This document shows, one piece after another, positions 1-13,456 of a stretch of 13,456 nt of DNA. How positions within the stretch are numbered: the first letter of the stretch is position 1; each line of letters starts with the position of its first letter. The position numbers were made by a program, and so were the translations under genes. Under the pieces are notes generated by a model. The model worked only from the letters and a program-made list of their open reading frames with translations. It did not search any database and was not told the origin of the DNA. The DNA is from a virus (Duplodnaviria; Heunggongvirae; Uroviricota; Caudoviricetes). Location: the IMG/VR virus record IMGVR_UViG_2548876862_000021, positions 1 to 13,456 of that record. One strand, written 5' to 3'.

Positions 1-597
1 CAAAACCGGCCAGAATAATCGGCGCCAGGCGGACTGAGTTATTGTCGTTTCATAGCGCCGGGAACCTGAAGCAATAAGGATTTTGTGATCGCGCATCCAC
101 GCAAACAGTTTGTTTGGACCAATACCAACAACCTTTGCAAAGTTTCCAATCAAAATTCCGCTGGCCTCGCCAACGCGATCGGCAAACTCAACTTTAGGTG
201 CGGCAATTGCGAGCTGGTTTTCCAGTTGCATTTTCTGCTCAGCAAGATCAGCAGCAAGGCGCAACGCTTCCGGTAACGTTTTTGGGATATTAACCGCAGT
301 TTCTTCAAGCTCTCGCCAACGGTCAACAAGACGAGCGGTGAACTCTGGCGACAACTGGGCAACAACGACAATACTGTCTCGCTTACCTTGTTCGCCCTCG
401 AAGACGTAATGCTCGTACTGAACACTGAACCCTAAGTTATTGATTCTTTCGGAAACCTCAATTTGAGGAAGCCGGATAACACCATTTTTAGCCAGCGTTT
501 CGATGGTACGTTTCACATTGTCATGACGCTTACCCACCAACTCAGCGATTTCAATGCTTGTCATTTTGATGGCATTGCCATTTATTAACTCATTCAT
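1..597 (-). CDS. Phage antirepressor, Rha N-terminal domain plus ANT/KilA-C-like C-terminal domain; partial, runs off window start
   Basis: Minus-strand ORF from ATG at 597-595 is open to position 1 (199 codons, no stop), so it is absent from the ORF track. I translated it by hand: MNELINGNAIKMTSIEIAELVGKRHDNVKRTIETL... (Rha-like) and ...GNFAKVVGIGPNKLFAWMRDHKIL... (ANT-like). Start overlaps the ninF-like stop by 8 nt. Confidence 0.6.
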   Translation of the reverse strand, partial: MNELINGNAIKMTSIEIAELVGKRHDNVKRTIETLAKNGVIRLPQIEVSERINNLGFSVQYEHYVFEGEQGKRDSIVVVAQLSPEFTARLVDRWRELEETAVNIPKTLPEALRLAADLAEQKMQLENQLAIAAPKVEFADRVGEASGILIGNFAKVVGIGPNKLFAWMRDHKILIASGSRRYETTITQSAWRRLFWPVL

Positions 598-766
598 CGT
601 CTTCTTCCTCGTACATTGAGCTATTCGGATCGCTCATCAGCTCTGCGCAGCAATCGGAGCATACGTGAACTTCCAGCACATGCAGTTTCTGACCGCAGTT
701 AGCGCACGTTAAAGCTCGCTCGACGCTTTCTTTCTGGTATTGAAGGGATTGGGATGGGCTAAGCAT
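590..766 (-). CDS. ninF: NinF-like small zinc-ribbon protein (58 aa)
   Basis: Hand-translated: MLSPSQSLQYQKESVERALTCANCGQKLHVLEVHVCSDCCAELMSDPNSSMYEEEDDE. Two CxxC-type pairs; start ATG overlaps the upstream stop (TAATG). Position matches ninF in the P22/lambda nin set. Below the 60-aa track threshold. Confidence 0.5.
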   Translation of the reverse strand: MLSPSQSLQYQKESVERALTCANCGQKLHVLEVHVCSDCCAELMSDPNSSMYEEEDDE

Positions 767-1125
767 TATTGGATTCTCTGCATCATGAGAAAGACAATCA
801 TGGCGGCGCGGAGGGGATTTTCATGTATAGCTCGCTTAGATTTACAGTAGGCCACACCGCGTGCACCCCACTCGTCTTCATCGAGATTGATAATGCTAAT
901 CCTGTATTTTTCAATAATCGGCCATGCGTCTGCTGGGTTTGCGCATGGGTTAAAGGAACCGCGCTCAACTTCTACTTCAACTGCGTCTCCGTTTACAATG
1001 TCTCCCTCAAATGAGACAAACACCATATCGCCATTCTCACCTTCTTTGTAATCCGGTGATCCGTTATGAATAGCTTCGAATACAGCCACGTTAATTTCAA
1101 AATCACTTAACTGTGAATAATCCAT
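766..1125 (-). CDS. NinX-like hypothetical protein (119 aa)
   Basis: Track ORF 766..1167; I prefer the internal ATG at 1125-1123, preceded by GAGGAA at about 7 nt and sitting 2 nt after the ninE-like stop. Sits between ninE-like and ninF-like as ninX does in P22. No recognisable catalytic motif. Confidence 0.5.
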   Translation of the reverse strand: MDYSQLSDFEINVAVFEAIHNGSPDYKEGENGDMVFVSFEGDIVNGDAVEVEVERGSFNPCANPADAWPIIEKYRISIINLDEDEWGARGVAYCKSKRAIHENPLRAAMIVFLMMQRIQ

Positions 1126-1127
1126 TG

Positions 1128-1304
1128 TCATTTCCTCGCACGATGTCTTAGCCACCGGATATCCCACAGGTGAGCCGTGTAATTGAAGGTTTTTACGTCA
1201 GATTCTTTTGGGATTGGCTTGGGTTTATTTCTGGAGCGCTTCGTTGGAAGGTATTTGCAGTTTTCGCAGATGATGTCGGTGATACTTCGTCGCTGTCGTC
1301 TCAT
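1128..1304 (-). CDS. ninE: NinE-like small basic protein (58 aa)
   Basis: Within track ORF 1128..1364, start at internal ATG 1304-1302, which overlaps the ninB stop (ATGA coupling). Protein [30 protein letters not shown]... Assignment by memory and position. Confidence 0.45.
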
Positions 1305-1741
1305 GCCGCCCTGTCTCCCCATCTCGCTTTCCACTCCAGAGCCAGTCGCGCTTCGTCTGACCACTTAACGCCATGTTCTGTACCGAATGCCTGTATAAGC
1401 TCTAATAGCTCCGCAAATTCGCTTACACGCATCCTGCTGGTTGACTGGCCTATTACCACAAAGCCATTCCCGGCAAGGTTAGGAACAACATCCTGCTGCT
1501 TTAATGCTGCGGTAAACACACACTTCCAGCTTTCTGCATCCAGCCAGCGACCATGCCATTCAACCTGACGAGAGACGTCACCAAGGCAAGCCCAAAGCTT
1601 TCGATTCTGGTCTAAGCTGCGGTTGCGTTCCTGAATGGTTACTACGATTGGTTTGGTTGGGTCTGGAAGAATTTGCTGTACCGCGTGAATAGCGTTTTGC
1701 TGATGTGCTGGGGATCGAATTTCAAAGGTTAGTTTTTTCAT
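1301..1741 (-). CDS. ninB: NinB (Orf-family recombination mediator)
   Basis: 146-aa [59 protein letters not shown]... recognised as lambda NinB family; same length as lambda NinB as I recall. Confidence 0.8.
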
Positions 1742-1934
1742 GACTTCCCTCTCTAACAGATTTCAGGTTATTCCACTCCGTTACCGCACTGCGATAATTC
1801 GCGGCCGCCACAGCGGCGTGGTTAGCGCAGTAGATTTGGCACCCGTTCTCCATGTCGAATATTGTCGGTGATTTTCCGCATTTACATTTTTTGGCACGCG
1901 GTGCGTCTGAACACATTCCGTTAACGGTGTCCAT
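1722..1934 (-). CDS. Small Cys-rich (putative zinc-binding) protein, nin-region, NinA/NinD-position
   Basis: 70-aa ORF with CxC...C...C pattern (CKCGK, CQIYC); GAGGGGGA Shine-Dalgarno upstream of ATG 1934; 3' end overlaps ninB start by 20 nt. Function not assignable. Confidence 0.5.
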   Translation of the reverse strand: MDTVNGMCSDAPRAKKCKCGKSPTIFDMENGCQIYCANHAAVAAANYRSAVTEWNNLKSVREGSHEKTNL

Positions 1935-1957
1935 CAGGATCCCCCTCGTTCTTAATC

Positions 1958-1990
1958 CAATAAAAAAGGGCTACTGTGTAAATAGCCCCT
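1958..1990 (-). terminator. Intrinsic terminator between helicase and nin genes (tR2-like position)
   Basis: On minus strand GGGCTA-TTTACACAG-TAGCCC stem-loop followed by TTTTTTATT, 29 nt downstream of the helicase stop. Confidence 0.5.
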
Positions 1991-2018
1991 GTTATTAGCT
2001 CAGTGATGTAGATGGTCA

Positions 2019-3455
2019 TCAGAATCCTCCTTTCTTCTTGGACTGCGGCTCCTCGCGTTCACGGCGGCGCATTTCAGCAGACTGTTGGTCTGTGTCATAA
2101 ATAGCGCCATTTGCCTGAATGCAATACACCGTGCCGGTATTGCCATGACGATTGAGACGAAGGATTAGTTCGGTTTCACCAGGTGGAACACTGTCATCAA
2201 AAGCACCTTCACGATGGATCCCCACCCAATAATCGCAATCCTGTTCAATCTGCCCTGTATCGCGCGAGTCACTTGGTAATGGGCGTTTATTGGTTCGGCT
2301 TTCCAATGCGCGGTTAAGCTGTGTCAGAAGCACAACAACGCAATCAAGCTCTTTGGCAAGGTTCTTCAATCCTTTGGTGATCATGCCGTAAGCAAGGTCG
2401 TTGCGATCGGCCTTCTCAGCAGTCATTAGTGTCAGGTAATCGACCAGAATCATGCCAACGCATCCTTTTTCTCGCTTGATTCGACGGCTTTCGCTGACGA
2501 TTTGAGCCAGAGATAATCCCGGCGTGTCGTCGATGTAAAGCATGTCGATTTCACTCAAGCGATTGGCTGTTTCGATCGCCCTGTTGAAGTCACCATCGTA
2601 ATCACCCTGATAGCCGTCATCGGCGTCATTTGTCGCCGGAAGGTAAAAAATATTCGGGTTAACACCAGACTTCTGCCCTACCAGTTTTTCCAGTATCTGG
2701 TCACCTGGCATTTCAAGGCTGAACATCAGAGCGGGCTTTTTCTCATGCACTGCGCAATTGATTGCCATCTGGCTGTATAGCGTCGTTTTCCCCATCTTAG
2801 GGCGAGCGCCAATGACAAACAGAGAGCCTTTCACCAGACCTTTCGGTGACAGCATCCTGTCCAGCGATGGGATCCCTGTGCTCATTCCTCGTTGTTCGCC
2901 TGACGGGTCAAATCGCTTCTCAAGGTCGCTAACCCAGTCTTCCATGACCTCACCAAATGAACGAAGGCCGCGACGCGATCCGGTTTTTGCATGGTCTGTC
3001 AGTTGCGTGAAAATCGACTGAATAGCTTCGTACTTCTGTGTTGCAGTCATTCCGTTGCGGGAATAGAGCAATTCCGTCGCTTCAGTCATGCGGTTGATGG
3101 CGTAGCGTTCCATTGCGGTTTCACGAACCTGCATTGCATAGGCAATGATGTTTGCTGCGCTTGGCGTGTTCTTTGCGATCTCAGCGATATAAGCAAAACC
3201 GCCAACAGACGCCGTTAACGATTTACGCTCCAGTTCATCGAAAAGCGTCAGGCCATCTACTGGCTTTTGCTCCCGGTGCATTCTGGTTATTTCTTCGAAA
3301 AGGATTTTGTGTGGTCGACTGTAAAATGAGTCAGGCTTCAGCATCGCCAGAACCTTCTGGACGCGCTCACTGCTGTCATCATCCAGAAGCAATCCACCAA
3401 TCACCGCCTGCTCTGCCTCGATGCTATGGGGCGGCGCATAAAAATTATCGGTCAT
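2019..3455 (-). CDS. Replicative DNA helicase, DnaB family (P22 gene 12-like)
   Basis: Strong resemblance to E. coli DnaB throughout (PHSIEAEQAVIGGLLLD, Walker A GARPKMGKTT, LVDYLTLM, LTQLNRALESR). Track starts at GTG 3470; I prefer ATG 3455-3453, preceded by GAGGGTG. Overlaps the O-like stop by 11 nt. Confidence 0.9.
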   Translation of the reverse strand: MTDNFYAPPHSIEAEQAVIGGLLLDDDSSERVQKVLAMLKPDSFYSRPHKILFEEITRMHREQKPVDGLTLFDELERKSLTASVGGFAYIAEIAKNTPSAANIIAYAMQVRETAMERYAINRMTEATELLYSRNGMTATQKYEAIQSIFTQLTDHAKTGSRRGLRSFGEVMEDWVSDLEKRFDPSGEQRGMSTGIPSLDRMLSPKGLVKGSLFVIGARPKMGKTTLYSQMAINCAVHEKKPALMFSLEMPGDQILEKLVGQKSGVNPNIFYLPATNDADDGYQGDYDGDFNRAIETANRLSEIDMLYIDDTPGLSLAQIVSESRRIKREKGCVGMILVDYLTLMTAEKADRNDLAYGMITKGLKNLAKELDCVVVLLTQLNRALESRTNKRPLPSDSRDTGQIEQDCDYWVGIHREGAFDDSVPPGETELILRLNRHGNTGTVYCIQANGAIYDTDQQSAEMRRREREEPQSKKKGGF

Positions 3456-4335
3456 CGTGTTCACCCTCACGAACTTTCAGGTAGGTATTATCGTTAAGCA
3501 GGAAATCAAATCCCTTTTTGTGCCAGACGGTTCCGCGCTGATGGTTTGGGCGCTCTTCGAACATCCATCGGCAATTTTCGCCTACGTAGCTCAAATAATT
3601 TCTCCAGTCCTGCATCGTGAAACCATGCCCGTCAAGCTGGCGGGTTATCACTCCGGCTTTGCGCCAGAACGTTCGGATCTGGTTTTTACGCTTGTCATTC
3701 AGTGCGCGGATTCTTGGCGCTTCAGGAAGGATTTCGTGGTAAGCATCGACAACATCCTGACAGCTAACGGAAGGTTTTTTCTTGTCAGACTTTTTGTCTG
3801 CTGTGGCACTCTCTAATACGTCAGTATTAGAGATATTATTTATATTATTGTTTATGGACAACCGTTGGACAACCGTTGGACAATCTCCGCTGAGAGCCGC
3901 GCCATTACTGGTGTTTGCGTTGGACAACCGTTGGACAACCGTTGGACAATTTTTTGCCTGAAAATCGTCATATTTAACGATTGTAAACAGGCTAAATTTC
4001 TTCCCCATCGAGCAAATATTAAGCATACCTTTCGACTCAAAAGTCCGTAATAAGCTCCGAACTTTGTTGTCGGGGATGAATGTTTCTCTGACCAGCGACG
4101 GGCGTCCAGTTATCATCTGACCGCGATCAACAGTTATCGGACCGATATCCGTATTGACGACAGTAGATTCGTGATTAGCCTTGAGGATTAAGTGAAGCCA
4201 AAGATGTACTGCCTGAGAGTCCTTATAGAGCCTGCTGTCCATAAACTGGCGGTGTATAGAGACATACCCCATACTGGATGCCTCCTGATGTTGTACAGGG
4301 TTATGCCTGTAATCAGCTAACTTAACGACGCCCAT
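3445..4335 (-). CDS. Replication initiator, lambda O-like (iteron-binding)
   Basis: 296-aa ORF immediately upstream of the helicase; contains the ori iterons inside its coding sequence (encoded peptide repeat CPTVVQRLSN), as in lambda O; AGGAG 6 nt upstream of the ATG. Confidence 0.75.
   Translation of the reverse strand: MGVVKLADYRHNPVQHQEASSMGYVSIHRQFMDSRLYKDSQAVHLWLHLILKANHESTVVNTDIGPITVDRGQMITGRPSLVRETFIPDNKVRSLLRTFESKGMLNICSMGKKFSLFTIVKYDDFQAKNCPTVVQRLSNANTSNGAALSGDCPTVVQRLSINNNINNISNTDVLESATADKKSDKKKPSVSCQDVVDAYHEILPEAPRIRALNDKRKNQIRTFWRKAGVITRQLDGHGFTMQDWRNYLSYVGENCRWMFEERPNHQRGTVWHKKGFDFLLNDNTYLKVREGEHDDR
3813..3950. repeat. Replication origin: two clusters of three direct ~11-bp iterons (GTTGGACAACC) plus flanking AT-rich stretch
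   Basis: Seen directly: 3856-3884 GGACAACCGTTGGACAACCGTTGGACAAT and 3919-3950 CGTTGGACAACCGTTGGACAACCGTTGGACAAT; AT-rich 3813-3855 (TATTAGAGATATTATTTATATTATTGTTTAT) lies downstream in the direction of O transcription, the lambda ori arrangement. Confidence 0.7.
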
Positions 4336-4483
4336 GTTTCACTCCTGCTTTGGCTAGTCTGTAAACACCAACAAGGCGCTCTGCGAACGCCCTGTTATTT
4401 GCTGCGGCTACCACTAATCCCTCAGGTGAATCAGGGTGTCGAATCTCTTCTTTTTCCTGGTATTTCTTACGACGTTTTGTCAT
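4322..4483 (-). CDS. Hypothetical small basic protein (53 aa) between cII and O
   Basis: Hand-found ORF MTKRRKKYQEKEEIRHPDSPEGLVVAAANNRAFAERLVGVYRLAKAGVKHGRR, AGGAG 6 nt upstream of ATG 4483-4481; 3' end overlaps the O start by 14 nt. Below track threshold. Confidence 0.35.
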   Translation of the reverse strand: MTKRRKKYQEKEEIRHPDSPEGLVVAAANNRAFAERLVGVYRLAKAGVKHGRR

Positions 4484-4517
4484 AATTACTCCTGTGGATT
4501 GATCCAGTCTTTCTACA

Positions 4518-4796
4518 TCAGGCCTCGAAGAATTCGCCGTTCTTCGGGGCTTTTTCTTTTGTCAGCATTCTGGCTACTTTCTTAGCCAGTTCCGCCAACT
4601 CCTCGTCTTCAACACCCCATTCAAGAACAGCCAGAAGCATTCCCATTTTGGGGATGAAGCTATCTTTCCATCGCGAAATTTGCGATTCATTAATCCCTAA
4701 CGCGTCGGCAACCTTTCGCTGACCACGTACAGCAATTCGATTCAGGATGTTGCTTGTAATTGCATTCGCTTTCTTGCGAGTACTTGTAAGTTGCAT
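4518..4796 (-). CDS. cII: cII-like transcriptional activator
   Basis: Track ORF 4518..4883 contains MQLTSTRKKANAITSNILNRIAVRGQRKVADALGINESQISRWKDSFIPKMGMLLAVLEWGVEDEE..., aligning with lambda CII (QISRWK...MLLAVLEWGV). Start set at ATG 4796-4794 so that nutR lies outside the gene. Confidence 0.8.
   Translation of the reverse strand: MQLTSTRKKANAITSNILNRIAVRGQRKVADALGINESQISRWKDSFIPKMGMLLAVLEWGVEDEELAELAKKVARMLTKEKAPKNGEFFEA
4522..4560 (+). terminator. Intrinsic terminator on the strand antisense to the cII 3' end (oop-like)
   Basis: 11-bp stem (GCCTCGAAGAA / TTCTTCGGGGC, one G-U) with 7-nt loop, directly followed by TTTTTCTTTT. Candidate extended -10 (TGtCATAAT, 4478-4486) about 40 nt upstream. 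Confidence 0.5.
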
Positions 4797-4854
4797 ATGT
4801 AAGTATTTCCTTAACAAATAAGAAGTTATGCGCATCAAATTATGCGCGTTGTAT

Positions 4855-4898
4855 TCCCGCATTTCGGCGGGAATGATGACCATGACTGTTAAAGAGCG
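4855..4898 (-). promoter_or_regulatory. nutR-like site: boxA (CGCTCTTTAACA) followed by boxB hairpin
   Basis: Read on minus strand: boxA at 4898-4887, 14-nt spacer, boxB TCCCGC-CGAAAT-GCGGGA at 4872-4855; the boxB 18-mer is identical to the one upstream of N. Confidence 0.6.
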
Positions 4899-4904
4899 GT
4901 GTTA

Positions 4905-5101
4905 CTATTTGTTTTTCTTGTTGCTTGGGAAAGGACGAACTTCCTCTCCAATCACACTGCCATCAGGCTTTACCGTAACCATGATGTTACGGCCTGCCAG
5001 AATGGCCTTGCTGATAGCGCACTGGATTACACCAAAGTCACTGGCTGCTTTAGCCTGTCCATGGATTTTGGCGTAATCGGCAAGTGTCATTCGAATCATA
5101 T
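4905..5101 (-). CDS. cro: Cro-like repressor
   Basis: [62 protein letters not shown] aligns with lambda Cro ([22 protein letters not shown]...PFPSNKK). Track start is GTG 5105; I prefer ATG 5101-5099 with GGAGAG upstream. Confidence 0.8.
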
Positions 5102-5128
5102 GCACTCTCCGTTATTAACCATGAACAA

Positions 5129-5198
5129 AGAATACCACAGGTATTCAAAGCAATCAATACTCAGGGTATTTTTAGTTTAAGTACCTTAGCTATTAGAA
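5129..5198. promoter_or_regulatory. OR region: three 15-bp operators (AATACC-N3-GGTATT) with divergent PR and PRM
   Basis: 5131-5145 AATACCACAGGTATT (perfect palindrome), 5156-5170 AATACTCAGGGTATT (1 mismatch), 5180-5194 AGTACCTTAGCTATT (2 mismatches); centre spacing 25 and 24 bp. PR on minus: -35 TTGATT (5157-5152), 17-bp spacer, -10 TATTCT (5134-5129). Candidate PRM -10 TAGAAT 5193-5198. Confidence 0.65.
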
Positions 5199-5205
5199 TT
5201 AAGCT

Positions 5206-5922
5206 ATGGAAAATAAAAAATCACTGACGACAGAACAGCTCGAAGACGCTAAGCGGCTTAAGGCTTTGTATGAGTCAAAAAAGAAAGAATTGGGAATAAC
5301 CCAATACTCAATCGCTGATGAACTGGGTATCACCCAAGGAGCGGTAGGGCATTATCTTAATGGCAGAAACGCGCTAAACGTTGAGGTCGCATCTGGTTTT
5401 GCACGTTTGTTGCAAGTCTCAATTGCTGATTTTAGCCAGTCAATTGCTGCCAAGGTTGCAGAACAGGCAGAAAGCCTTAAGAGCGATGCCAACGTAAGGT
5501 ATGCAGGGGAATACAGAGCAGGAAAGAGGTATCCGGTGTTAAGCAGTATCCAGGCTGGCTCGTGGTGTGAAGCATGCGAACCATACACCATTAAAGACAT
5601 AGATGTTTGGCTTGAGTCTGACGCGCATATTCAAGGTAATGCGTTCTGGCTTAAAGTGGAAGGTGATTCAATGACGGCACCGGTTGGGTTAAGCATTCCA
5701 GAGGGAACATTCGTTCTTTTCGATACCGGAAGGGAGGCGATCAACGGCAGCTTGGTCATAGCAAAACTTTCTGACTCTAACGAAGCAACATTCAAGAAGC
5801 TGATAATCGACGGCGGAAATAAATACCTCAAGGGACTTAATCCTGCATGGCCTCTCGTGCCAATCAATGGAAACTGCAAGATTATAGGCGTTGCAATTGA
5901 GACAAAACTAAGGCTGGTTTGA
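5206..5922 (+). CDS. cI: CI-type prophage repressor (HTH N-terminal domain plus S24 LexA-like autocleavage domain)
   Basis: 238 aa, collinear with lambda CI ([24 protein letters not shown] / FWLEVEGNSMTAP / FKKLIRD all matched by close variants). No Shine-Dalgarno upstream of the ATG. Confidence 0.9.
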   Translation: MENKKSLTTEQLEDAKRLKALYESKKKELGITQYSIADELGITQGAVGHYLNGRNALNVEVASGFARLLQVSIADFSQSIAAKVAEQAESLKSDANVRYAGEYRAGKRYPVLSSIQAGSWCEACEPYTIKDIDVWLESDAHIQGNAFWLKVEGDSMTAPVGLSIPEGTFVLFDTGREAINGSLVIAKLSDSNEATFKKLIIDGGNKYLKGLNPAWPLVPINGNCKIIGVAIETKLRLV

Positions 5923-5939
5923 TCACGCAAGGGGCGATT

Positions 5940-6308
5940 ATGGTTGGAACCGCTATAGCAAGCTTTTTTGGGATGTTGGCAATCTCGACAATTTACGGCT
6001 TAGCGCATGCTTTTATTGCGAAATCTCTATCAGAAAAAATAAGCCAGGCTTGGGCGCATAGATCAGCTCGTTTCATGATTCTGGTGATCATAGCAATACA
6101 AGGGATATCTGCATTTATCCTCTATGGATCAAGCTTATACCTATTGTATCAAGGCGCGACATTTACGCCTTACACCAGTGATTACGGAACTCTATACGAT
6201 GGTAGTGAAGACATCACTGTGGCTTGGATCGTCTTTGGTTTATCTATGGCCGTGTCTGTTGTAGCAGACATCATTAAGGTAATTCTCGTCTTAACCTTCG
6301 CTGACTAA
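5940..6308 (+). CDS. Small multi-pass membrane protein co-transcribed with cI (rexAB/sieB-position; candidate exclusion or abortive-infection factor)
   Basis: Track ORF 5919..6308 begins at a TTG overlapping the cI stop; ATG at 5940 has AAGGGG about 6 nt upstream. Several long hydrophobic segments consistent with transmembrane helices (AIASFFGMLAISTIYGLAHAFIA, FMILVIIAIQGISAFILYG, VAWIVFGLSMAVSVVADIIKVILVL). Confidence 0.6.
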   Translation: MVGTAIASFFGMLAISTIYGLAHAFIAKSLSEKISQAWAHRSARFMILVIIAIQGISAFILYGSSLYLLYQGATFTPYTSDYGTLYDGSEDITVAWIVFGLSMAVSVVADIIKVILVLTFAD

Positions 6309-6438
6309 CCTATAATCCCGGCAGCAATAGCTATCGGGATCCACTTCACATATCCCGCATAAAAAGCACTGAACAAGCAGACACCGAAAAAATAAATATC
6401 CTTTGTATTCATTTGCTTATCATTATTTCACCAAAAAT

Positions 6439-6480
6439 AAATACCTTGGGTATTTACACAATAAAATACCTACAGTATTC
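6439..6480 (+). promoter_or_regulatory. OL region: two operators of the same AATACC-N3-GGTATT family, with PL
   Basis: 6439-6453 AATACCTTGGGTATT (perfect), 6464-6478 AATACCTACAGTATT (1 mismatch), centres 25 bp apart. Candidate PL -35 TTTACA 6452-6457, 17-bp spacer, -10 TATTCT 6475-6480, the same -10 hexamer as PR. Confidence 0.6.
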
Positions 6481-6526
6481 TTTAGCCATCAGCAGGACGC
6501 TGGAAGCCAAACGGAACAGATTGGCA

Positions 6527-6568
6527 GGCTCTTTAACATTGATGGGATTGTCCCGCCGAAATGCGGGA
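6527..6568 (+). promoter_or_regulatory. nutL-like site: boxA (GGCTCTTTAACA) followed by boxB hairpin
   Basis: boxA 6527-6538 resembles the rrn/lambda boxA consensus; boxB TCCCGC-CGAAAT-GCGGGA at 6551-6568, identical to the nutR boxB; located between PL and N. Confidence 0.6.
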
Positions 6569-6675
6569 ACCAAAGAGTAGTTGGCTTTGGGGTGACGTGA
6601 AGTGCAGCTGCACGACGGCAACCGGAAGATAAGCACCCGGCGCGTCACCGCCAAAGTCAATCATCGGAGGTCAAC

Positions 6676-6975
6676 ATGACAGTAGTCATTACATATCTGG
6701 CTGACGATAACGCCAGAAATCGCCGCAGAGCACGCAGACAGGCTCAACGTGAGCAGGCAATGCAAGAGCAGCGACTGGCGCGAAAAATTGCGCTAAAGCT
6801 CTCTGGTTGCGTCAGAGCAGATAAAGCAGCATCACTCGGAAGCCTTCGCTGCAAGAAGGCAGAAGAAGTCGAGAGTAAACAGAATCGCATTTACTACCGC
6901 AAGCCACGCAGTGAAATGGGTGTGACTTGTGTTGGTCGCCAGAAAATGAAATTAAGCAGCAAACCACTTATTTGA
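6676..6975 (+). CDS. N: N-like transcription antiterminator
   Basis: 99 aa; N-terminal arginine-rich motif (NARNRRRARRQAQREQA); C-terminus RIYYRKPRSEMGVTCVGRQKMKLSSKPLI parallels lambda N (RTWYSKPGERGITCSGRQKIKGKSIPLI); GGAGG 6 nt upstream; directly downstream of nutL. Confidence 0.75.
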   Translation: MTVVITYLADDNARNRRRARRQAQREQAMQEQRLARKIALKLSGCVRADKAASLGSLRCKKAEEVESKQNRIYYRKPRSEMGVTCVGRQKMKLSSKPLI

Positions 6976-6983
6976 GGTGAGAT

Positions 6984-7070
6984 ATGGAAGAAGAATTTGA
7001 AGAGTTCGAAGAGCATCCGCAGGATGTGATGGAACAGTACCAGGACTATCCGTATGACTACGACTATTGA
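6984..7070 (+). CDS. Hypothetical 28-aa highly acidic, aromatic-rich peptide
   Basis: Hand-found: MEEEFEEFEEHPQDVMEQYQDYPYDYDY, preceded by GAGGTGAG. Very short, so coding status is uncertain. Confidence 0.3.
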   Translation: MEEEFEEFEEHPQDVMEQYQDYPYDYDY

Positions 7071-7254
7071 TAAAAATCAATGGTGTGGACAATTCAAGCG
7101 ATGCAATGGATGCAAGCTGCAATCGGAATGCATGGTTAAGCCTGAAGAAATGTTTCCTGTAATGGAAGATAGGAAATATGTCGATAAATGGGCAATACGA
7201 ACGACGGCAATGATTGCCAGAGAACTTGGTGAACTGAACAACAAGGCTGCCTGA
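7054..7254 (+). CDS. Hypothetical small Cys-containing protein (66 aa)
   Basis: Track ORF with C-x5-C-x2-C-x5-C spacing; weak ribosome-binding site; followed by a hairpin plus T-run. Confidence 0.35.
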   Translation: MTTTIDKNQWCGQFKRCNGCKLQSECMVKPEEMFPVMEDRKYVDKWAIRTTAMIARELGELNNKAA

Positions 7255-7290
7255 TGGTGGCCTTTATTTTCTTATTTGAGAGGAATTAAT

Positions 7291-7914
7291 ATGTCATCAA
7301 TCCGCTTAACTACGAGAATGAAAGAGGAAATCGCTCGTAACGCTTTAATTAAGTCTGGGGTTTTCACTGAGCTTGAAGAAGTAACAAAGTTAAAGAACCA
7401 GCTTGCACTTGACGCCAGAGTTATTGCGTTTGGCGGTAAAAAGAAAACTGAGGAAGTGGATCAGTTATCATCCAAGTTGGTAGCTATAAGTGAAGAACTT
7501 GAAAAGATGGGATGTTCATTTTACTCATACGATTTTCGTTCTACTTCAATTTATCTGACTGTATCTGGCAGAAGGGTTGGATGGCATTCATATGGGAAAG
7601 ACGGCAACGGCGAAGATATATTTCCCCCTACTCCAACCAAAGATAAATGCATGTTTGACGCAGAACACGAAATAACAAAAAGGTTTGATGAAATCTGCGC
7701 ATTGCAACAAAAACTTGAAGCCAAGAAAAAGGATATCGAATCAAATGTATGGGCTGCTTTGAACTCAGTCACAACAGTTAAGCGACTTATTGAGGTTTGG
7801 CCTGAAAGCAAAGAATTGCTACCAAAAGAAGCAGATAAAGCAAGTACAGCACTTCCTGCTTTACGGGTAGAAGATTTGAATAAGATGACTGGACTTCCTT
7901 CCGAGGCTGCATAG
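7291..7914 (+). CDS. Hypothetical protein (207 aa), first gene of low-GC cassette
   Basis: Track ORF 7276..7914; start set at ATG 7291 preceded by GAGAGGAA. GC about 38-40% in hand-counted 60-nt samples versus about 48-50% in flanking genes. No recognisable motif. Confidence 0.6.
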   Translation: MSSIRLTTRMKEEIARNALIKSGVFTELEEVTKLKNQLALDARVIAFGGKKKTEEVDQLSSKLVAISEELEKMGCSFYSYDFRSTSIYLTVSGRRVGWHSYGKDGNGEDIFPPTPTKDKCMFDAEHEITKRFDEICALQQKLEAKKKDIESNVWAALNSVTTVKRLIEVWPESKELLPKEADKASTALPALRVEDLNKMTGLPSEAA

Positions 7915-7977
7915 TCGGCCTTTATTTTTAGCATAAACAACAGAATAAACACTGCACTGAATTATTTGAGGTTAGAT

Positions 7978-8448
7978 ATGACAAAATCATGGAGCGTACC
8001 TTTTCCTGAATCAGAAACTGAACATGAGGGAATGCCTGTTTTCTGGAGATTCCAGGCGACAGTTGAAGAAGATGGAATCAAAATATTCGCACTTCAATAT
8101 ATAGCTTTTCATCAGACAGAGCATTATGCATGGTTGGTTCCTGCGCATTGGATTGTTAATTTTAAACCAGCACCAAATCAGTGGTTACAGGAATGGAAAC
8201 AAAAGAGAAATAGATATGCAATTAAGAAAGTAGCAAAAAATGCAGAAAGATCTTTTGCATTCCCAACGAAGAAACTTGCCATTGAGAGTTTATTGCGCCG
8301 GAAGAAATACCATTTAATGAGAATCAAACAAGATTTGGCTGTTGTATCAACTCTTGTTGATGGGATGAAGAATATTGATACATCAACACCAGATATTGAA
8401 TATAACTTTGGGCACAACCAAGAAACAGAAAATTGGGTATTTTATTAG
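7978..8448 (+). CDS. Hypothetical protein (156 aa), second gene of low-GC cassette
   Basis: Track ORF 7966..8448; start set at ATG 7978 preceded by GAGGT. Low GC; no recognisable motif. Confidence 0.6.
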   Translation: MTKSWSVPFPESETEHEGMPVFWRFQATVEEDGIKIFALQYIAFHQTEHYAWLVPAHWIVNFKPAPNQWLQEWKQKRNRYAIKKVAKNAERSFAFPTKKLAIESLLRRKKYHLMRIKQDLAVVSTLVDGMKNIDTSTPDIEYNFGHNQETENWVFY

Positions 8449-8552
8449 TACGAGTAAGCACTATGTATTCATTCCAACGAGTGAATACACGGAGCAATGT
8501 CGCTCGTAACTAAACAGGAGCCGACTTGTTCTGATTATTGGAAATCTTCTTT

Positions 8553-8578
8553 GCCCTCCAGTGTGAGGGCTTTTTTAT
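8553..8578 (+). terminator. Intrinsic terminator downstream of the low-GC cassette
   Basis: GCCCTC-CAGTGT-GAGGGC stem-loop immediately followed by TTTTTTAT. Confidence 0.6.
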
Positions 8579-8642
8579 ATGCATACCAATAACGCTTCAC
8601 TTGAGGCGTTTTCGTTATGCAATCAAATATAAGGAGTTACCC

Positions 8643-8777
8643 ATGATGCACTTTCAGCTCGCGGGTAGCGGCGTCATGTCCGCTTTCTACCCGCACGAAT
8701 CTGAATTATCACGCCGAGTTAAACAATTAATCAGAGCAGCAAAGAAACAACTGGAGGCGTTATGCGCAATGAGATAG
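8643..8777 (+). CDS. cIII: cIII-like small protein (44 aa; FtsH-inhibitor family)
   Basis: MMHFQLAGSGVMSAFYPHESELSRRVKQLIRAAKKQLEALCAMR resembles the lambda CIII core (AIAGWPVAGCPSESLLERITRKLR); AAGGAG upstream. The 79-aa track ORF 8538..8777 is an upstream TTG extension of it. Confidence 0.55.
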   Translation: MMHFQLAGSGVMSAFYPHESELSRRVKQLIRAAKKQLEALCAMR

Positions 8778-8914
8778 CCATCAATCACCAGATGCTTCGT
8801 GCTGCACAGAACAAAGCAGTAATAGCTAGATTTATTGGTGATTCCAAAATGTGGCTTGAAGCAAATAAAGCGATGAAATCAGCTATCAACCTTCCGTGGT
8901 ATCGCAGGAAATGA
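8762..8914 (+). CDS. Kil-like small protein (50 aa), overlapping the cIII-like 3' end
   Basis: Hand-found: MRNEIAINHQMLRAAQNKAVIARFIGDSKMWLEANKAMKSAINLPWYRRK. GGAGG upstream; overlap with cIII mirrors the lambda cIII/kil arrangement. Similarity to lambda Kil is from uncertain recall of an ATFIGDEKMF-type motif. Confidence 0.4.
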   Translation: MRNEIAINHQMLRAAQNKAVIARFIGDSKMWLEANKAMKSAINLPWYRRK

Positions 8915-8989
8915 GTTTTACAGATAACTGGTCAGACGAAGAATTCATTCGTCAGATGAAAGAATTAATCGGTAACGAAGGAGATATTC

Positions 8990-9160
8990 ATGTCACTTGC
9001 AACCACAGTGAAGGAGAGCAAGTTACAGAGACGCATGTACACGCAGAAAGCTCTCTGGTATCGCCATAATGGTGACCGCGAAGGAATGCGGGTATGCCTT
9101 AATTTGTCCCGAGTCGAAGTATTAAATCAGCGTTATTTCCTTGGGCCGTGTCCATTCTGA
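8990..9160 (+). CDS. Hypothetical small protein (56 aa)
   Basis: Hand-found: MSLATTVKESKLQRRMYTQKALWYRHNGDREGMRVCLNLSRVEVLNQRYFLGPCPF. AAGGAG upstream; ends 8 nt before the SSAP gene. Confidence 0.35.
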   Translation: MSLATTVKESKLQRRMYTQKALWYRHNGDREGMRVCLNLSRVEVLNQRYFLGPCPF

Positions 9161-9168
9161 GGTGAATT

Positions 9169-9876
9169 ATGGATTTGAATAAATTCGATGAGCCATTCAG
9201 CCCTGAAGATATCGAATGGCGAATACAGCAAAGCGGTAAAACACGCGATGGCAAAGTGTGGGCTATGGTGCTGGCTTATGTCACGAACCGGGCAATCATG
9301 AAACGCCTGGACGATGTTTGTGGCAAAGCAGGATGGCGCAATGAATACCGCGATATTCCCAACAACGGCGGCGTTGAATGCGGCATATCAATAAAGATTG
9401 ATTCCGAATGGGTAACCAAATGGGATGCTGCTGAAAACACGCAGGTAGAAGCCGTCAAAGGTGGTCGTTCAGGTGCAATGAAGCGCGCTGCCGTTCAGTG
9501 GGGAATCGGTCGGTATCTGTATAACCTTGAGGAAGGTTTCGCACAAACATCTCTCGACAAAAAGCAGGGATGGCACAGGGCAAAACTCAAGGATGGAACA
9601 GGATTTTACTGGCTCCCTCCATCGCTGCCAGGCTGGGCAATCCCAGCATCAGATAACAAACCATCACCAGAAAATACCAACCAGAAATCTCCATCGGTTG
9701 ACTGCGAGCAAATCCTGAAAGACTTCAGCGATTATGCGTCAACAGAAACTGACAAGAAAAAACTCATCGAGCGTTATCAGCGTGACTGGCAATTAATGGC
9801 TGGCAACGAGGAAGCGCAGGCTAAATGCGTTCAGGTAATGAACATCAGAGTTAACGAACTAAAACAGGCGGCATAA
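9169..9876 (+). CDS. Single-strand annealing protein, Rad52/Sak-like
   Basis: 235 aa; region KGGRSGAMKRAAVQWGIGRYLY fits the Rad52-family pattern; stop abuts the SSB start (TAAATG); GAGGTG upstream. Confidence 0.6.
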   Translation: MDLNKFDEPFSPEDIEWRIQQSGKTRDGKVWAMVLAYVTNRAIMKRLDDVCGKAGWRNEYRDIPNNGGVECGISIKIDSEWVTKWDAAENTQVEAVKGGRSGAMKRAAVQWGIGRYLYNLEEGFAQTSLDKKQGWHRAKLKDGTGFYWLPPSLPGWAIPASDNKPSPENTNQKSPSVDCEQILKDFSDYASTETDKKKLIERYQRDWQLMAGNEEAQAKCVQVMNIRVNELKQAA

Positions 9877-10383
9877 ATGGCAAGCAGAGGCGTAAATAAG
9901 GTGATTATCCTTGGTCGGGTAGGACAAGACCCGGAAGTTCGATACTCACCATCAGGAACAGCGTTCGCTAACCTGACAATAGCCACGTCAGAACAATGGC
10001 GAGATAAAAATACTGGCGAGCAAAAGGAATTGACTGAATGGCATCGTGTTGCTGTATCCGGGAAACTGGCTGAGGTCGTGGGGCAGTATGTGAAAAAAGG
10101 TGATCAGATTTATTTCGAGGGAATGCTGAGAACCAGAAAGTGGAAAGACCAGTCAGGACAAGACCGTTACACAACCGAGGTTCATGTCGGAATTAATGGC
10201 GTGATGCAAATGCTTGGCGGCATTGGCGACAGCAAACAACAAGCAGCCAGCAGGCAATCACAGAAGCCACAGCAGCAATCATCACCAGCACAACACAACG
10301 AACCACCTATGGATTTTGACGACGATATACCCTTTGCACCAGTAACTCTCCCCTTCCCTCGTCACGCTATTCACGCAATTTAA
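9877..10383 (+). CDS. ssb: Single-stranded DNA-binding protein (SSB) with a 15-aa extension beyond the canonical DDDIPF tip
   Basis: N-terminus [23 protein letters not shown]..., [14 protein letters not shown] and [11 protein letters not shown] all match E. coli SSB; the ORF continues [15 protein letters not shown] before the stop. Confidence 0.9.
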
Positions 10384-10396
10384 TCAGGAGAAAATC

Positions 10397-10690
10397 ATGC
10401 CAGCGCCTCTGTATTGTGCGGATGACGCGCGCCGCTGTTCCGGCAATTCCGTATCGGAGGTGCTGGATAAATTCAGAAAAAACTACGATCGAATAATGTC
10501 TCTACCGCAGGAAACGAAAGAGGAAAAGGAATTTCGCCACTGCGTATGGCTTGCAGAGAAAGAAGAACGCGAGCGAATTTACCAGACATCAATCCGACCA
10601 TTCCGCAAAGCCACATATACCCACTTCCCTGAAATTGACCCGCGCCTGCGTAATTACCGCTCACGCTATGGCGCTATCAGTAATGACTGA
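10397..10690 (+). CDS. Hypothetical protein (97 aa)
   Basis: Track ORF; AGGAG 6 nt upstream of the ATG. Confidence 0.55.
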
Positions 10691-10700
10691 GGAATTTACC

Positions 10701-10865
10701 ATGAGAGGACTTGCATACAATCCCGGCATTCTTCCGGCAGAAATGATTATTCGCCAACGCGTAAAGCCAATGCCATCGAGAGAGGAATTGCTTAAGAGAA
10801 ATAGTTTCGGTTCTGTTAATGACAACAAATATCTGAATGCGATGTTGCGGAGTGGGAAGAAATGA
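10701..10865 (+). CDS. Hypothetical small protein (54 aa)
   Basis: In-frame ATG inside track ORF 10551..10865, preceded by GAGGAA; stop overlaps the next start (ATGA). Confidence 0.4.
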
Positions 10866-11374
10866 AACAAATGTCACTAATTGAGATGGATGGTTTTCTG
10901 AAAGGTAAATGCATCCCAAGTGATTTAAAGGTTAACGAAACAACCGCTGAATATCTGGTGCGTAAGTTTGGTGAACTCGAATCAAAACTGGAAACGGCGT
11001 TGCGGGAGTGTCGTTCTGCTGGAATCACGATTGACAACCTTGAAGCCAAGTGCGATGCGCTGGCGGCGGAGAATGCGGCACTGAAGGCTGGCGCTATGGA
11101 CGAAATCAAGGTTATCAACCGTGGAGGTCAGGCATATTGCGTAAAAGATGGAGTGCAAGTTAATCCCATGTATGCAAGAGGGTGGAATGACTATCGCGCA
11201 AAGTCTATGCAATCAGACACCCCAGCCACCGATGCTTTCCTGGCTGAAGTTCGGGCGCAGGGCGTGGAGATGGCTATGGAGCATATGCAGTCGAGCGGTT
11301 CGTTAACATTTGGAGATTGCTACATATCACTTAACGAGTTCGCCGCCCAGCTTCGCAAAGGAGGCAACCAGTGA
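10862..11374 (+). CDS. Hypothetical protein (170 aa), predicted coiled-coil segment
   Basis: Track ORF; heptad-like segment [40 protein letters not shown]; translationally coupled on both sides. Confidence 0.6.
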
Positions 11375-11886
11375 GCGAAATTAATTACCAGGCACTGCGT
11401 GAGGCGGCGGAACGTGCAATTCCAGCAATGGAACGCCTGTTAATGTTGCCAGCTGATGATGATTTGTTAAGTGAACAGGAACTTAAAGATTACGGTGTGG
11501 ATATTGATGCGCTCAACGCCTTCAAATTTCTGACCGGACCAGAAACCGTGCTGGCGCTGCTGGATGAACGGGAAAGAAACCAGCAATACATCAAACGCCG
11601 CGACCAGGAGAACGAGGATATTGCGCTAACGGTAGGGAAACTGCGTGTTGAGCTTGAAGCAGCAAAATCAAAACTCAACGAGCAGCGTGAATATTACGAA
11701 GGCGTTATCTCTGATGGGAGCAAGCGTATTGCTGAACTGGAGGAGCGGGAAATACTGCTCCCGGAACGTAGCAGCATGCTTCATCGAACAGATTTTCACG
11801 ATGATTACCAAACGGTAATGGCATACAAAGTTTCTGAAGTCATCGCTGCAATCCGCGTCGCTGGCATTCGCATCAAAGGAGAGTGA
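11371..11886 (+). CDS. Hypothetical protein (171 aa), possibly Ead/Ea22-like
   Basis: Track ORF with GTG start overlapping the previous stop, AAAGGAGG 6 nt upstream; Ead/Ea22-like label is from memory of similar prophage proteins, unverified. Confidence 0.5.
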   Translation: MSEINYQALREAAERAIPAMERLLMLPADDDLLSEQELKDYGVDIDALNAFKFLTGPETVLALLDERERNQQYIKRRDQENEDIALTVGKLRVELEAAKSKLNEQREYYEGVISDGSKRIAELEEREILLPERSSMLHRTDFHDDYQTVMAYKVSEVIAAIRVAGIRIKGE

Positions 11887-11887
11887 T

Positions 11888-12151
11888 ATGGCAACTTTAA
11901 CAAAAAAAGAACGGGCATGGTTGAACGAATTACAGGACGTTCTTGATCGCTGCCCATCACCGAAAAAAATTGGTTTTTACACCATTGGCGATAAAAGCAT
12001 TTACCTGTATGACCTGCGCCGCATGGATGAAATCATGGAGGCTCTTGATAATCGTTCGTCGATGGATTGGTGTGTTGCTGTCCATGATATGAATGCCGGA
12101 TTTGATGAAAGGATTTTGTTCCCCTCATCAGTTGAAAGCACTGCGGGTTAA
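11888..12151 (+). CDS. Hypothetical protein (87 aa)
   Basis: Track ORF; AAAGGAG upstream; 1-nt gap after the previous stop. Confidence 0.55.
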   Translation: MATLTKKERAWLNELQDVLDRCPSPKKIGFYTIGDKSIYLYDLRRMDEIMEALDNRSSMDWCVAVHDMNAGFDERILFPSSVESTAG

Positions 12152-12161
12152 GGAGTAACAC

Positions 12162-12848
12162 ATGACCACTATTACCAAAGAACGTATTGAATTGTTCATT
12201 AAAAATCCGCTTGAAAACGGGCTTACCCGTGGTGAACAAATGGAACTGGCACGGATTGCGCTGGCATCGCTGGAAGCAGATCCAGTTGCTTATATTTTCA
12301 AACATCCGGCCGGGAAATTATTCTGGTCTTTAACGGATGAAAGCAATAAAGAGCAAGCGGACGTTATTCCTGTTTATGCTGCCGCGCCTGCGTCGGTTGT
12401 GCCGGATAATGCATCAGAGCCTCTTGCTTATGCTTACAAAGAGCTTACGCCTGAGATTATGCGCAACCATTTAGCTGTATTCGAGCGATATGGAATAGCC
12501 CCAAACGATAGCTCTACCACAATTCAGGCACTGCGAATCGCGCTGGATGGCATAGAGCGGAGAGACGCCATGCTTCATGGTGCCGAACCTGTAAGCCAAA
12601 CTTACAAGTTGAACCAGCTATCGGGCAACTATCCGGTAACTCCGGATGGTTGGATAAGATGTAGTGATCGAATGCCGGAAGACACCAAAATGTTACTGGC
12701 ATTTAGTCAAGGTGAAATCGTGGCCGCATATTGGAACTGGGTTGTAAATCCAATTGATTACAAAAAATATAGAGCTTTCACGTATTTATCAGGAAATATC
12801 TTGGATGACGTAACTCACTGGATGCCGCTACCAGAGCCTCCACTTTGA
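12162..12848 (+). CDS. Hypothetical protein (228 aa), C-terminal DUF551-like region
   Basis: Track ORF; TAAGGAG upstream; C-terminal ...VTHWMPLPEPPL resembles the DUF551 signature as I recall it. Confidence 0.55.
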   Translation: MTTITKERIELFIKNPLENGLTRGEQMELARIALASLEADPVAYIFKHPAGKLFWSLTDESNKEQADVIPVYAAAPASVVPDNASEPLAYAYKELTPEIMRNHLAVFERYGIAPNDSSTTIQALRIALDGIERRDAMLHGAEPVSQTYKLNQLSGNYPVTPDGWIRCSDRMPEDTKMLLAFSQGEIVAAYWNWVVNPIDYKKYRAFTYLSGNILDDVTHWMPLPEPPL

Positions 12849-12944
12849 AAGCGAAGCTTATACATATCTTTTACATCAGCAATCTATTGTTAATCTCCAA
12901 TCAATGTTACGTTGTCATCTCACTCATGCTTTGGAGGTAGTGAT

Positions 12945-13124
12945 ATGTCTTGTCCAAAATGCGGTTCTGGAAATATTGCAAAAGAAAAAACAATGCGTGG
13001 ATGGTCTGATGATTATGTGTGCTGCGATTGCGGATACAACGACTCTAAAGACGCATTTGGAGAGCGTGGTAAAAACGATTTTGTCAAAATTAATAAAGGA
13101 CGCGAAGGCAACGAAAAAAGCTAA
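12945..13124 (+). CDS. Small zinc-ribbon protein (59 aa)
   Basis: MSCPKCGSGN...CCDCGYN (CxxC...CxxC); GGAGG upstream of ATG 12945. The track ORF 12912..13124 uses an upstream TTG. Confidence 0.5.
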   Translation: MSCPKCGSGNIAKEKTMRGWSDDYVCCDCGYNDSKDAFGERGKNDFVKINKGREGNEKS

Positions 13125-13187
13125 TTTATTTATTCATATATGAAAACAATGTAACCAATATTCGAATTGAAGAACTGAAAGAACACC

Positions 13188-13212
13188 AAGCCGCCTGATG
13201 GCGGTTTTTTAT
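13188..13212 (+). terminator. Intrinsic terminator ending the leftward-operon accessory block
   Basis: CCGCC-TGAT-GGCGG stem-loop followed by TTTTTTATT. Confidence 0.6.
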
Positions 13213-13255
13213 TACCTGATTTGCAGGTTCGATTCCCTATTCGGAGATAGCACTC

Positions 13256-13456
13256 ATGCAACACGAACTACAGCCTGATTCCCTGGTTGATTTGAAATTC
13301 ATCATGGCCGATACTGGCTTCGGTAAAACCTTCATCTATGACCGGATTAAGTTCGGAGACCTGCCTAAAGCCAAAGTTATCCACGGGCGAGCAAGATGGT
13401 TATATCGTGACCATTGTGAATTCAAAAATAAGCTCTTAAGCCGCGCCAATGGGTAA
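13256..13456 (+). CDS. Excisionase / AlpA-family DNA-binding protein (probable Xis)
   Basis: 66 aa; ...MADTGFGKTFIYDRIKFGDLPKAKVIHGRARWLY... fits the AlpA/excisionase pattern; GGAGAT upstream; stop at the last base of the window. Confidence 0.5.
   Translation: MQHELQPDSLVDLKFIMADTGFGKTFIYDRIKFGDLPKAKVIHGRARWLYRDHCEFKNKLLSRANG

Follow-up and report, generated by a model that had tools for sequence, protein, structure and literature searches.

What kind of genetic switch lies in a 13,456-nucleotide stretch of viral DNA (Caudoviricetes; IMG/VR record IMGVR_UViG_2548876862_000021, positions 1 to 13,456), where a lambda-like repressor gene sits among short dyads that are not those of lambda? That whole stretch is here called the window, and all coordinates are window positions. 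The answer, as judged from the sequence, is very probably that positions 4905-6975 hold a lysis/lysogeny immunity module of the type carried by coliphage HK620, and that this module is a homologue of the cI/Cro switch of phage lambda. The switch is real but ordinary. It is a near copy of lambda's, with a different repressor-binding sequence.

Nor is it new. The module and its operators have been annotated since 2001 in the GenBank entry for the HK620 immunity region (AF335538; Clark, Inwood, Cloutier & Dhillon 2001, J Mol Biol 311:657). What can be added here is minor: a consensus for the operator across its family, together with its link to the recognition helix of the repressor; the poor fit of two features in the deposited annotation, the third left operator (OL3) and tIMM; and a rare allele of the first right operator (OR1).

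The operators

The initial annotation of this region described five copies of a 15-base-pair (bp) dyad, AATACC-N3-GGTATT, three of them at the right operator (OR) and two at the left operator (OL). All five are where they were said to be, and they are exactly the OR1, OR2, OR3, OL2 and OL1 annotated in HK620. The list proved one short, for a sixth dyad lies at 6395-6409, and the interval given for the region, 5129-6480, cuts the -10 hexamer of the leftward promoter PL by one base.

At OR, the core of OR1 (5131-5145, AATACCACAGGTATT; as a 17-mer, 5130-5146, GAATACCACAGGTATTC) matches the dyad without a mismatch, overlaps the -10 hexamer of the rightward promoter PR, and is conserved in the alignment of related OR regions. 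OR2 (5156-5170, AATACTCAGGGTATT; 5155-5171, CAATACTCAGGGTATTT) has one mismatch, overlaps the PR -35 hexamer and abuts the -35 of the putative repressor promoter PRM. OR3 (5180-5194, AGTACCTTAGCTATT; 5179-5195, AAGTACCTTAGCTATTA) has two. At OL, OL2 (6440-6454, AATACCTTGGGTATT; 6439-6455, AAATACCTTGGGTATTT) has no mismatch and forms a perfect 7+7 palindrome; OL1 (6465-6479, AATACCTACAGTATT; 6464-6480, AAATACCTACAGTATTC) has one mismatch and overlaps the PL -10. Perfect palindromes had been claimed at the PR -10 and at PL, and both exist. The one at PL, however, covers the -35 hexamer, not the -10, and the perfection of the other rests on a rare base, C5136, considered below.

Dyads can, of course, arise as by-products of AT-rich promoter sequence without binding any protein. 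These regions are AT-rich, and each -10 hexamer includes the outer TATT of a half-site. The PR and PL -10 hexamers are indeed both TATTCT, as had been noted (minus strand, 5134..5129; plus strand, 6476-6481), and they agree because each opens with TATT, where an operator half-site (GGTATT) has its outer end. Chance, however, does not deliver the numbers observed. With at most two mismatches allowed, the window holds six dyads where 0.35 +/- 0.59 are expected, and none of 200 dinucleotide-preserving shuffles reached six. All six fall within 5131-5194 or 6395-6479; the scan found no site at this threshold outside these two control regions of the window. At three mismatches the window holds nine against 4.5 expected, which is not significant. 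Trained on the five sites, a position-weight matrix gives them 16-24 bits, while the best non-operator position in the 13.5 kb scores 8.1 bits. Further, only repressors with one particular recognition helix have the dyads beside them, and the 24-25 bp spacing of the dyads is conserved while the spacers between them diverge. The shuffles, the helix association and the conserved spacing together effectively refute the by-product explanation.

A lambda scaffold

The geometry in which these dyads are set is that of lambda. Here, divergent cI (ATG at 5206, plus strand) and cro (ATG at 5099, minus strand) lie about 100 bp apart and flank three 17-bp operators, whose dyads start at 5131, 5156 and 5180 and which lie over PR and PRM. 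OR3 lies 11-27 nucleotides upstream of the cI ATG in both phages, OR2 35-51 here and 34-50 in lambda, and OR1 60-76 here and 58-74 in lambda. The operator spacings are thus 25 and 24 bp, rather than lambda's 24 and 23.

The promoters also follow. PR runs on the minus strand from 5157 to 5129, inside the pR annotated in HK620, with its -35 TTGATT (5157..5152) and its -10 separated by a 17-bp spacer; as in lambda, the two hexamers lie inside OR2 and OR1, respectively. Beside OR2, again as in lambda, is the putative weak PRM (plus strand, 5171-5199), with -35 TTTAGT (5171-5176) and -10 TAGAAT (5194-5199) ending 6 nucleotides before the cI ATG. A TAnnAT element is invariant at 6-8 nucleotides upstream of the cI ATG in 17 diverged loci. 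At the other end of the module, OL1 and OL2 cover PL (plus strand, 6453-6481; -35 TTTACA at 6453-6458, a 17-bp spacer and the -10 at 6476-6481), upstream of nutL and N. This promoter lies within HK620's annotated pL and is the only promoter-like site called in a scan of 4850-6750. Two features depart from lambda: a gene called hkaS stands where lambda has rexAB, and no clear OL3 is found at the lambda position.

The protein encoded by cI (plus strand, 5206-5922; 238 amino acids) has an N-terminal HTH_3 domain and a C-terminal Peptidase_S24 domain by Pfam. Its identity to lambda cI is 43% from end to end and 53% in the N-terminal domain, and its best match among solved structures is lambda repressor (3bdn, E=2.9e-52). 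Ala117-Gly118, Ser155, Lys197/198 and Asp38 are invariant columns that align with the lambda cleavage site, catalytic residues and activation patch. It is therefore a repressor of the lambda type, with the helix-turn-helix, the LexA/S24 domain, the Ala-Gly site and the Ser/Lys dyad; the self-cleavage residues are conserved. Cro (minus strand, 4905-5099; 64 amino acids) is 63% identical to lambda Cro and belongs to its family (Pfam Cro, PF09048, E=3.6e-26). Its ATG at 5099 is preceded by GGAGAG, and the gene is annotated in HK620.

Recognition helix and operator change together

If the scaffold is lambda's, where does the module differ? The initial annotation had suggested that the repressor is lambda-like overall and differs in its helix-turn-helix, and this is so. 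The recognition helix reads QGAVGHYLN, against QSGVGALFN in lambda, and the wider recognition region TQGAVGHYLNGRNALN, against GQSGVGALFNGINALN. The region keeps lambda's Gln44, Val47, Gly48, Asn52 and Asn55; it changes Ser45 to Gly, Gly46 to Ala, Ala49 to His, Leu50 to Tyr and Phe51 to Leu.

The operator differs likewise in part. In the frame of the 17-mer, the lambda half-site is T-A-T-C-A-C-C-G (TATCACCG), and the half-site here is (A/G)-A-A-T-A-C-C-N. The two share A2, A5, C6 and C7 and differ at positions 1, 3, 4 and 8. The window thus carries neither the operators that define lambda immunity (TATCACCGCCGGTGATA) nor the lambda helix, which is altered at lambda residues 45, 46 and 49-51. 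An altered helix together with an altered half-site suggests a specificity different from lambda's.

These changes appear to correspond. In the lambda complex, Gln44 reportedly contacts base pair 2 and Asn55 base pair 6, while Ser45 contacts base pair 4, and Ala49 and Gly46 contact base pair 3. Gln44 and base 2 are both kept here, as are Asn55 and base 6; Ser45 and base 4 are both changed, as are Ala49-Gly46 and base 3. Kept residues would thus meet kept bases, and changed residues changed ones.

A comparison across relatives points the same way. A scan of one genome per species gave 80 loci, and Erwinia phage vB_EhrS_49 brings the number of related loci to 81. The pattern [TS]QG[AG][VI][GA]HY[LIM]N[GA]R defines a helix class with 26 members, the Erwinia phage included. 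All 26 carry one dyad or more, and in 24 of them the 120 bp upstream of cI hold two or more; among the 55 loci with other helices, a single one has at least two anywhere in about 4.5 kb. In a 17-locus alignment of OR, the half-sites and the TAnnAT of PRM are conserved while the spacers vary. The family half-site, taken from 152 half-sites, is A-A-T-A-C followed by C (62%) or T (36%).

The loci that share the helix are otherwise quite diverged. They include prophages of Lelliottia, Serratia, Pantoea, Tatumella, Proteus, Yersinia and Microbulbifer as well as the Erwinia phage, all with the same dyads at the same offsets upstream of cI and at PL, even though their repressors are 44-76% identical to that of the window, their intergenic spacers have diverged, and many have an OL3 at 21 bp from OL2 instead of a dyad at 45 bp. 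The cI of the Erwinia phage has an N-terminal domain 68% identical to the window's, with an identical recognition helix. Its OR holds AATACTCTAAGTATT, AATACTTGCGGTATT and AATAGCACAGGTATT at a spacing of 24-25 bp, and three more dyads stand at its OL, in otherwise diverged DNA.

The marine Microbulbifer prophages (loci L065, L067 and L068) have a cI only about 44% identical, yet share the helix and, at both OR and OL, the dyads. This, in turn, means that the operator code extends well outside the Enterobacterales.

The HK620 immunity type

Within this family, the window belongs with HK620. Mapped onto the window, AF335538 places pR at 5122-5157; OR1, OR2 and OR3 at 5130-5146, 5155-5171 and 5179-5195; OL2, pL and OL1 at 6439-6455, 6453-6488 and 6464-6480; cro, cI and hkaS at 4905-5099, 5206-5922 and 5940-6308; nutL at 6527-6568; and N from 6676. 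That entry annotates OR1-3, OL1-3, pR, pL, nutL/R, cI and cro at positions equivalent to those here, and HK620-type phages as a group keep OR1-3, OL1-2, pR, pL, nutL, cI, hkaS, cro and N in identical order and positions. The operators of HK620 itself are identical to the window's save at 5136, where HK620 has T and the window C; there are a few other single-base changes, and the third OL site is read here at a different place than in the deposited annotation.

Over 4900-6700, nucleotide identity to the window is 99.9% for phi296 and phi367, 99.7% for mEpX2, 99.3% for HK620 and HK630, 99.1-99.2% for HK140 and HF4s, and 98.7% for two Stx2c-converting phages. HZ41 carries the same module, and is named among nine phages whose identity over this interval is put at 99.1-99.9%. 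The N-terminal domain of cI is 99% identical to that of HK620 and 100% identical to those of HK140 and mEpX2. A near-identical DNA-binding domain of cI, a near-identical Cro and near-identical operators are what mark the HK620 immunity type, and all three are found; homoimmunity itself is a prediction. The module is present in 146 of 5426 complete E. coli genomes. The phages that carry it differ widely in virion type, which implies that this immunity module is mobile. Taken as a whole, the window is a lambdoid mosaic, and its best overall match, mEpX2, covers 65% of it.

Several points weigh against this assignment and belong in the balance. The operators are predictions, however well supported. 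None of the papers searched contains the operator sequences as exact strings or the accession of cI, WP_000428318; for the operator, repressor and immunity of HK620 the same literature gave incidental mentions only and no experimental footprint, and the mEpX2 papers were irrelevant to operators. PR matches the sigma-70 consensus at 8 of 12 positions and so falls below a promoter scan that asks for 9 of 12. The start of the cI transcript is likewise predicted: the PRM -10 ends close to the cI ATG and no Shine-Dalgarno sequence is present, which suggests that the cI mRNA, like lambda's, has no leader. The association of helix with dyad, at Fisher p=3e-17, is overstated, since related loci were counted as independent. 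Finally, the pairing of residues with bases draws on contacts that crystal structures of the lambda repressor-operator complex reportedly show (Jordan & Pabo 1988; Beamer & Pabo 1992).

How the switch would work

Binding, cooperativity, activation and induction are here carried over by homology with lambda, on top of the sites, enrichment, gene homologies, geometry and helix-operator association observed above. Dimers of the 238-residue cI would bind 17-bp pseudo-palindromes with the half-site A-A-T-A-C-(C/T), that is, AATACY-N3-RGTATT. Repressor at OR1 and OR2 would block PR, whose -10 and -35 lie within those sites. Repressor at OR2 would also adjoin the weak PRM -35 and probably activate PRM; the lambda activation residue, Asp38, is conserved. 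OR3, lying at -11 to -27 of PRM, would provide negative autoregulation and so limit cI. Occupancy of OL1 and OL2 would shut PL and, with PL, N. Cro, which has the lambda Cro fold, would be expected on the same sites. The prophage would be induced in the SOS response by RecA-stimulated self-cleavage at Ala117-Gly118, using Ser155 and Lys198.

Does the match to consensus encode affinity?

The three OR sites of the window have 0, 1 and 2 mismatches, and the initial annotation took this gradient as a reproduction of lambda's intrinsic affinities, OR1 > OR2 > OR3. It was correct that the site nearest cI, OR3, is the most degenerate of the three. Across 27 loci, OR3 also has the poorest match on average, with 2.0 mismatches against 1.5 for OR1 and 1.2 for OR2.

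The gradient, however, depends on one base. In the window, the sixth base in the left half of OR1 (position 5136) is C, and it is this rare C that makes the palindrome perfect. The base is T in HK620, mEpX2, phi296, HK630, two E. coli chromosomes that were checked, and 90 IMG/VR contigs. Just one IMG/VR contig (L087) has the C, and this is a different phage: across 3 kb it shows 21 mismatches to the window (99.3% identity), and it differs in other segments. Over 5080-5230, no identical copy of the window sequence occurs among the 146 E. coli genomes. With the common T, the mismatches in OR1, OR2 and OR3 become 1, 1 and 2. Even this count may be too strict, since the family frequencies of C and T at the sixth position of the half-site make T probably a tolerated alternative, and perhaps no real mismatch at all.

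The wider comparison is no kinder. A strict increase in mismatches from OR1 to OR2 to OR3 is seen in 1 of the 27 loci, namely the window, and OR2 is strictly the best site in 12. The perfect site at OL is OL2, not OL1, so OL does not mirror OR. To score sites against a consensus drawn from those very sites, few as they are, is of course circular, and such a score is not an affinity. That the graded match encodes a lambda-like order of affinities is therefore unlikely. The gradient is mostly a feature of one allele, and what survives of the claim is the tendency of OR3 to be weakest, which has some support.

The same base has a second consequence. On the minus strand, C5136 gives TGG-TATTCT, where T5137 and G5136 place T-G at -15/-14 of PR. 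This is a TGn extended -10, and it is absent from the common allele.

A third site at OL

Where is the third left operator? The sixth dyad (core 6395-6409, AATATCCTTTGTATT; 17-mer 6394-6410, AAATATCCTTTGTATTC), which the list of five had omitted, has two mismatches and lies 45 bp upstream of OL2. It scores 13.0 bits against a best background of 8.1, although the matrix was trained on the other five sites. It is therefore a candidate for a distal OL operator, one that would replace the canonical OL3 some 21 bp from OL2.

The deposited annotation of HK620 reads this DNA otherwise. It places tIMM, an intrinsic terminator of the cI-hkaS transcript, at 6390-6420, and OL3 at 6417-6433 (TTATCATTATTTCACCA). 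The dyad can form a short A/U hairpin followed by T-rich sequence, as a terminator would require. The fold of the RNA from 6380-6425, however, is worth -0.6 kcal/mol, no better than that of shuffled sequences (z=+0.68), and a terminator scan makes no call there. The terminator was accordingly rejected as a feature of the window. The annotated OL3 fares no better. By hand count, its core, TATCATTATTTCACC, agrees with the dyad at 3 of 12 positions, and the site is absent from the top list of the matrix, which ends at 5.9 bits. That 6390-6420 and 6417-6433 are the terminator and operator of the deposited entry is thus quite improbable.

Related loci also bear on the question. Their OL regions fall into two classes. 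In the first (Erwinia phage 49, Lonsdalea, Pantoea B9002 and Pectobacterium), OL3 lies 21 bp from OL2, and loci with this site lack the right half-site at 45 bp. In the second (the window, Serratia L014, Kluyvera L031, Tatumella L012 and L013, and Pantoea L064), no site is found at 21 bp, and a dyad, with two to three mismatches in these relatives, lies at exactly 45 bp from OL2. This pattern favors 6395-6409 as a distal operator, as does the poor fit of the annotated OL3.

The pattern is not decisive, however. Several of the dyads at 45 bp have three mismatches. The left part of the dyad lies in a block, AAAAATAAAT, that is kept in both OL classes whether or not the full dyad is present, so another function may explain its conservation. 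A spacing of 45 bp, or about 4.3 helical turns, is ill-suited to cooperativity between adjacent dimers in the style of lambda. Some phages, such as 933W, manage with only two OL operators. On balance, a genuine third operator at 6395-6409 is plausible, and held tentatively at somewhat below even confidence. A broader conjecture is that HK620-type phages have lost the canonical OL3 and use the distal operator instead, and that C5136, through its symmetric OR1 and its TGn extended -10, is a natural variant of the set-point of the switch. This may be so, but we regard it as rather doubtful.

The block AAAAATAAAT deserves mention in its own right. It lies at 6388-6398, about 70-75 bp upstream of OL1, and is conserved across diverged loci (L006-L064) in both OL architectures. 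It may serve PL from a distance as a UP-like or bending element, which lambda also has, or it may be what is left of a duplicated copy of OL2.

Neighboring genes and transcripts

Downstream of cI is hkaS (plus strand, 5940-6308; 122 amino acids), which is annotated in HK620 and falls in phrog_6534, a family of unknown function. A Pfam search with it returned only a sub-threshold match, to the membrane region of a cation ATPase. The gene is presumably co-transcribed with cI. It stands in place of rexAB, and may be an exclusion or fitness gene expressed by the prophage.

Just after the hkaS stop, a stable hairpin (AUCCCGG...UCGGGAU, 6315-6340) has a folding energy of -15.3 kcal/mol (z=-2.75) and is not followed by a U tract. 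The cI-hkaS transcript may in fact end here, or the hairpin may stabilize it. A terminator call on the minus strand at 5146..5130 proved to be merely the OR1 palindrome, and a scan of the whole window with Rfam at gathering thresholds gave no matches.

A hydrophobic minus-strand open reading frame of 35 residues (6305-6412, MNTKDIYFFGVCLFSAFYAGYVKWIPIAIAAGIIG), which starts beside the sixth dyad, is probably not a gene. Only its first eight or so codons are similar in relatives, where its length varies from 5 to 78 residues, and it has no Pfam match.

Beyond PL comes nutL (plus strand, 6527-6568), with a boxA-like GCTCTTTAA at 6528-6536 and a boxB hairpin, TCCCGC-CGAAAT-GCGGGA, at 6551-6568. 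The hairpin appears in the minimum-energy fold, and the nutL sequence is conserved in Erwinia phage 49; nutL is annotated in HK620. The first gene of the PL operon encodes the antiterminator N (plus strand, 6676-6975; 99 amino acids; phrog_271, N-like, E=2.4e-36). The N proteins of phi296 and HK620 have 90 amino acids. Residues 1-57 of N are identical in the window and phi296, and the sequences diverge from residue 58, so that the C-terminal third differs. This implies a mosaic junction inside the N gene.

Implications

The HK620 immunity type is common, and is found also in some Stx-converting phages. Beyond correct annotation, this matters little. The misfit of the annotated OL3 and tIMM in HK620, and the rare allele of OR1, are small corrections that can be tested. 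Were the distal operator real, its 45-bp spacing would be a geometry unlike lambda's, and it could alter looping between OL and OR and the autoregulation of PRM. The operator code, AATACY-N3-RGTATT, helps to predict homoimmunity among prophages. Last, the comparison shows, in a clean example from nature, how the recognition helix of a repressor and the operator that goes with it change in step on the scaffold of lambda.

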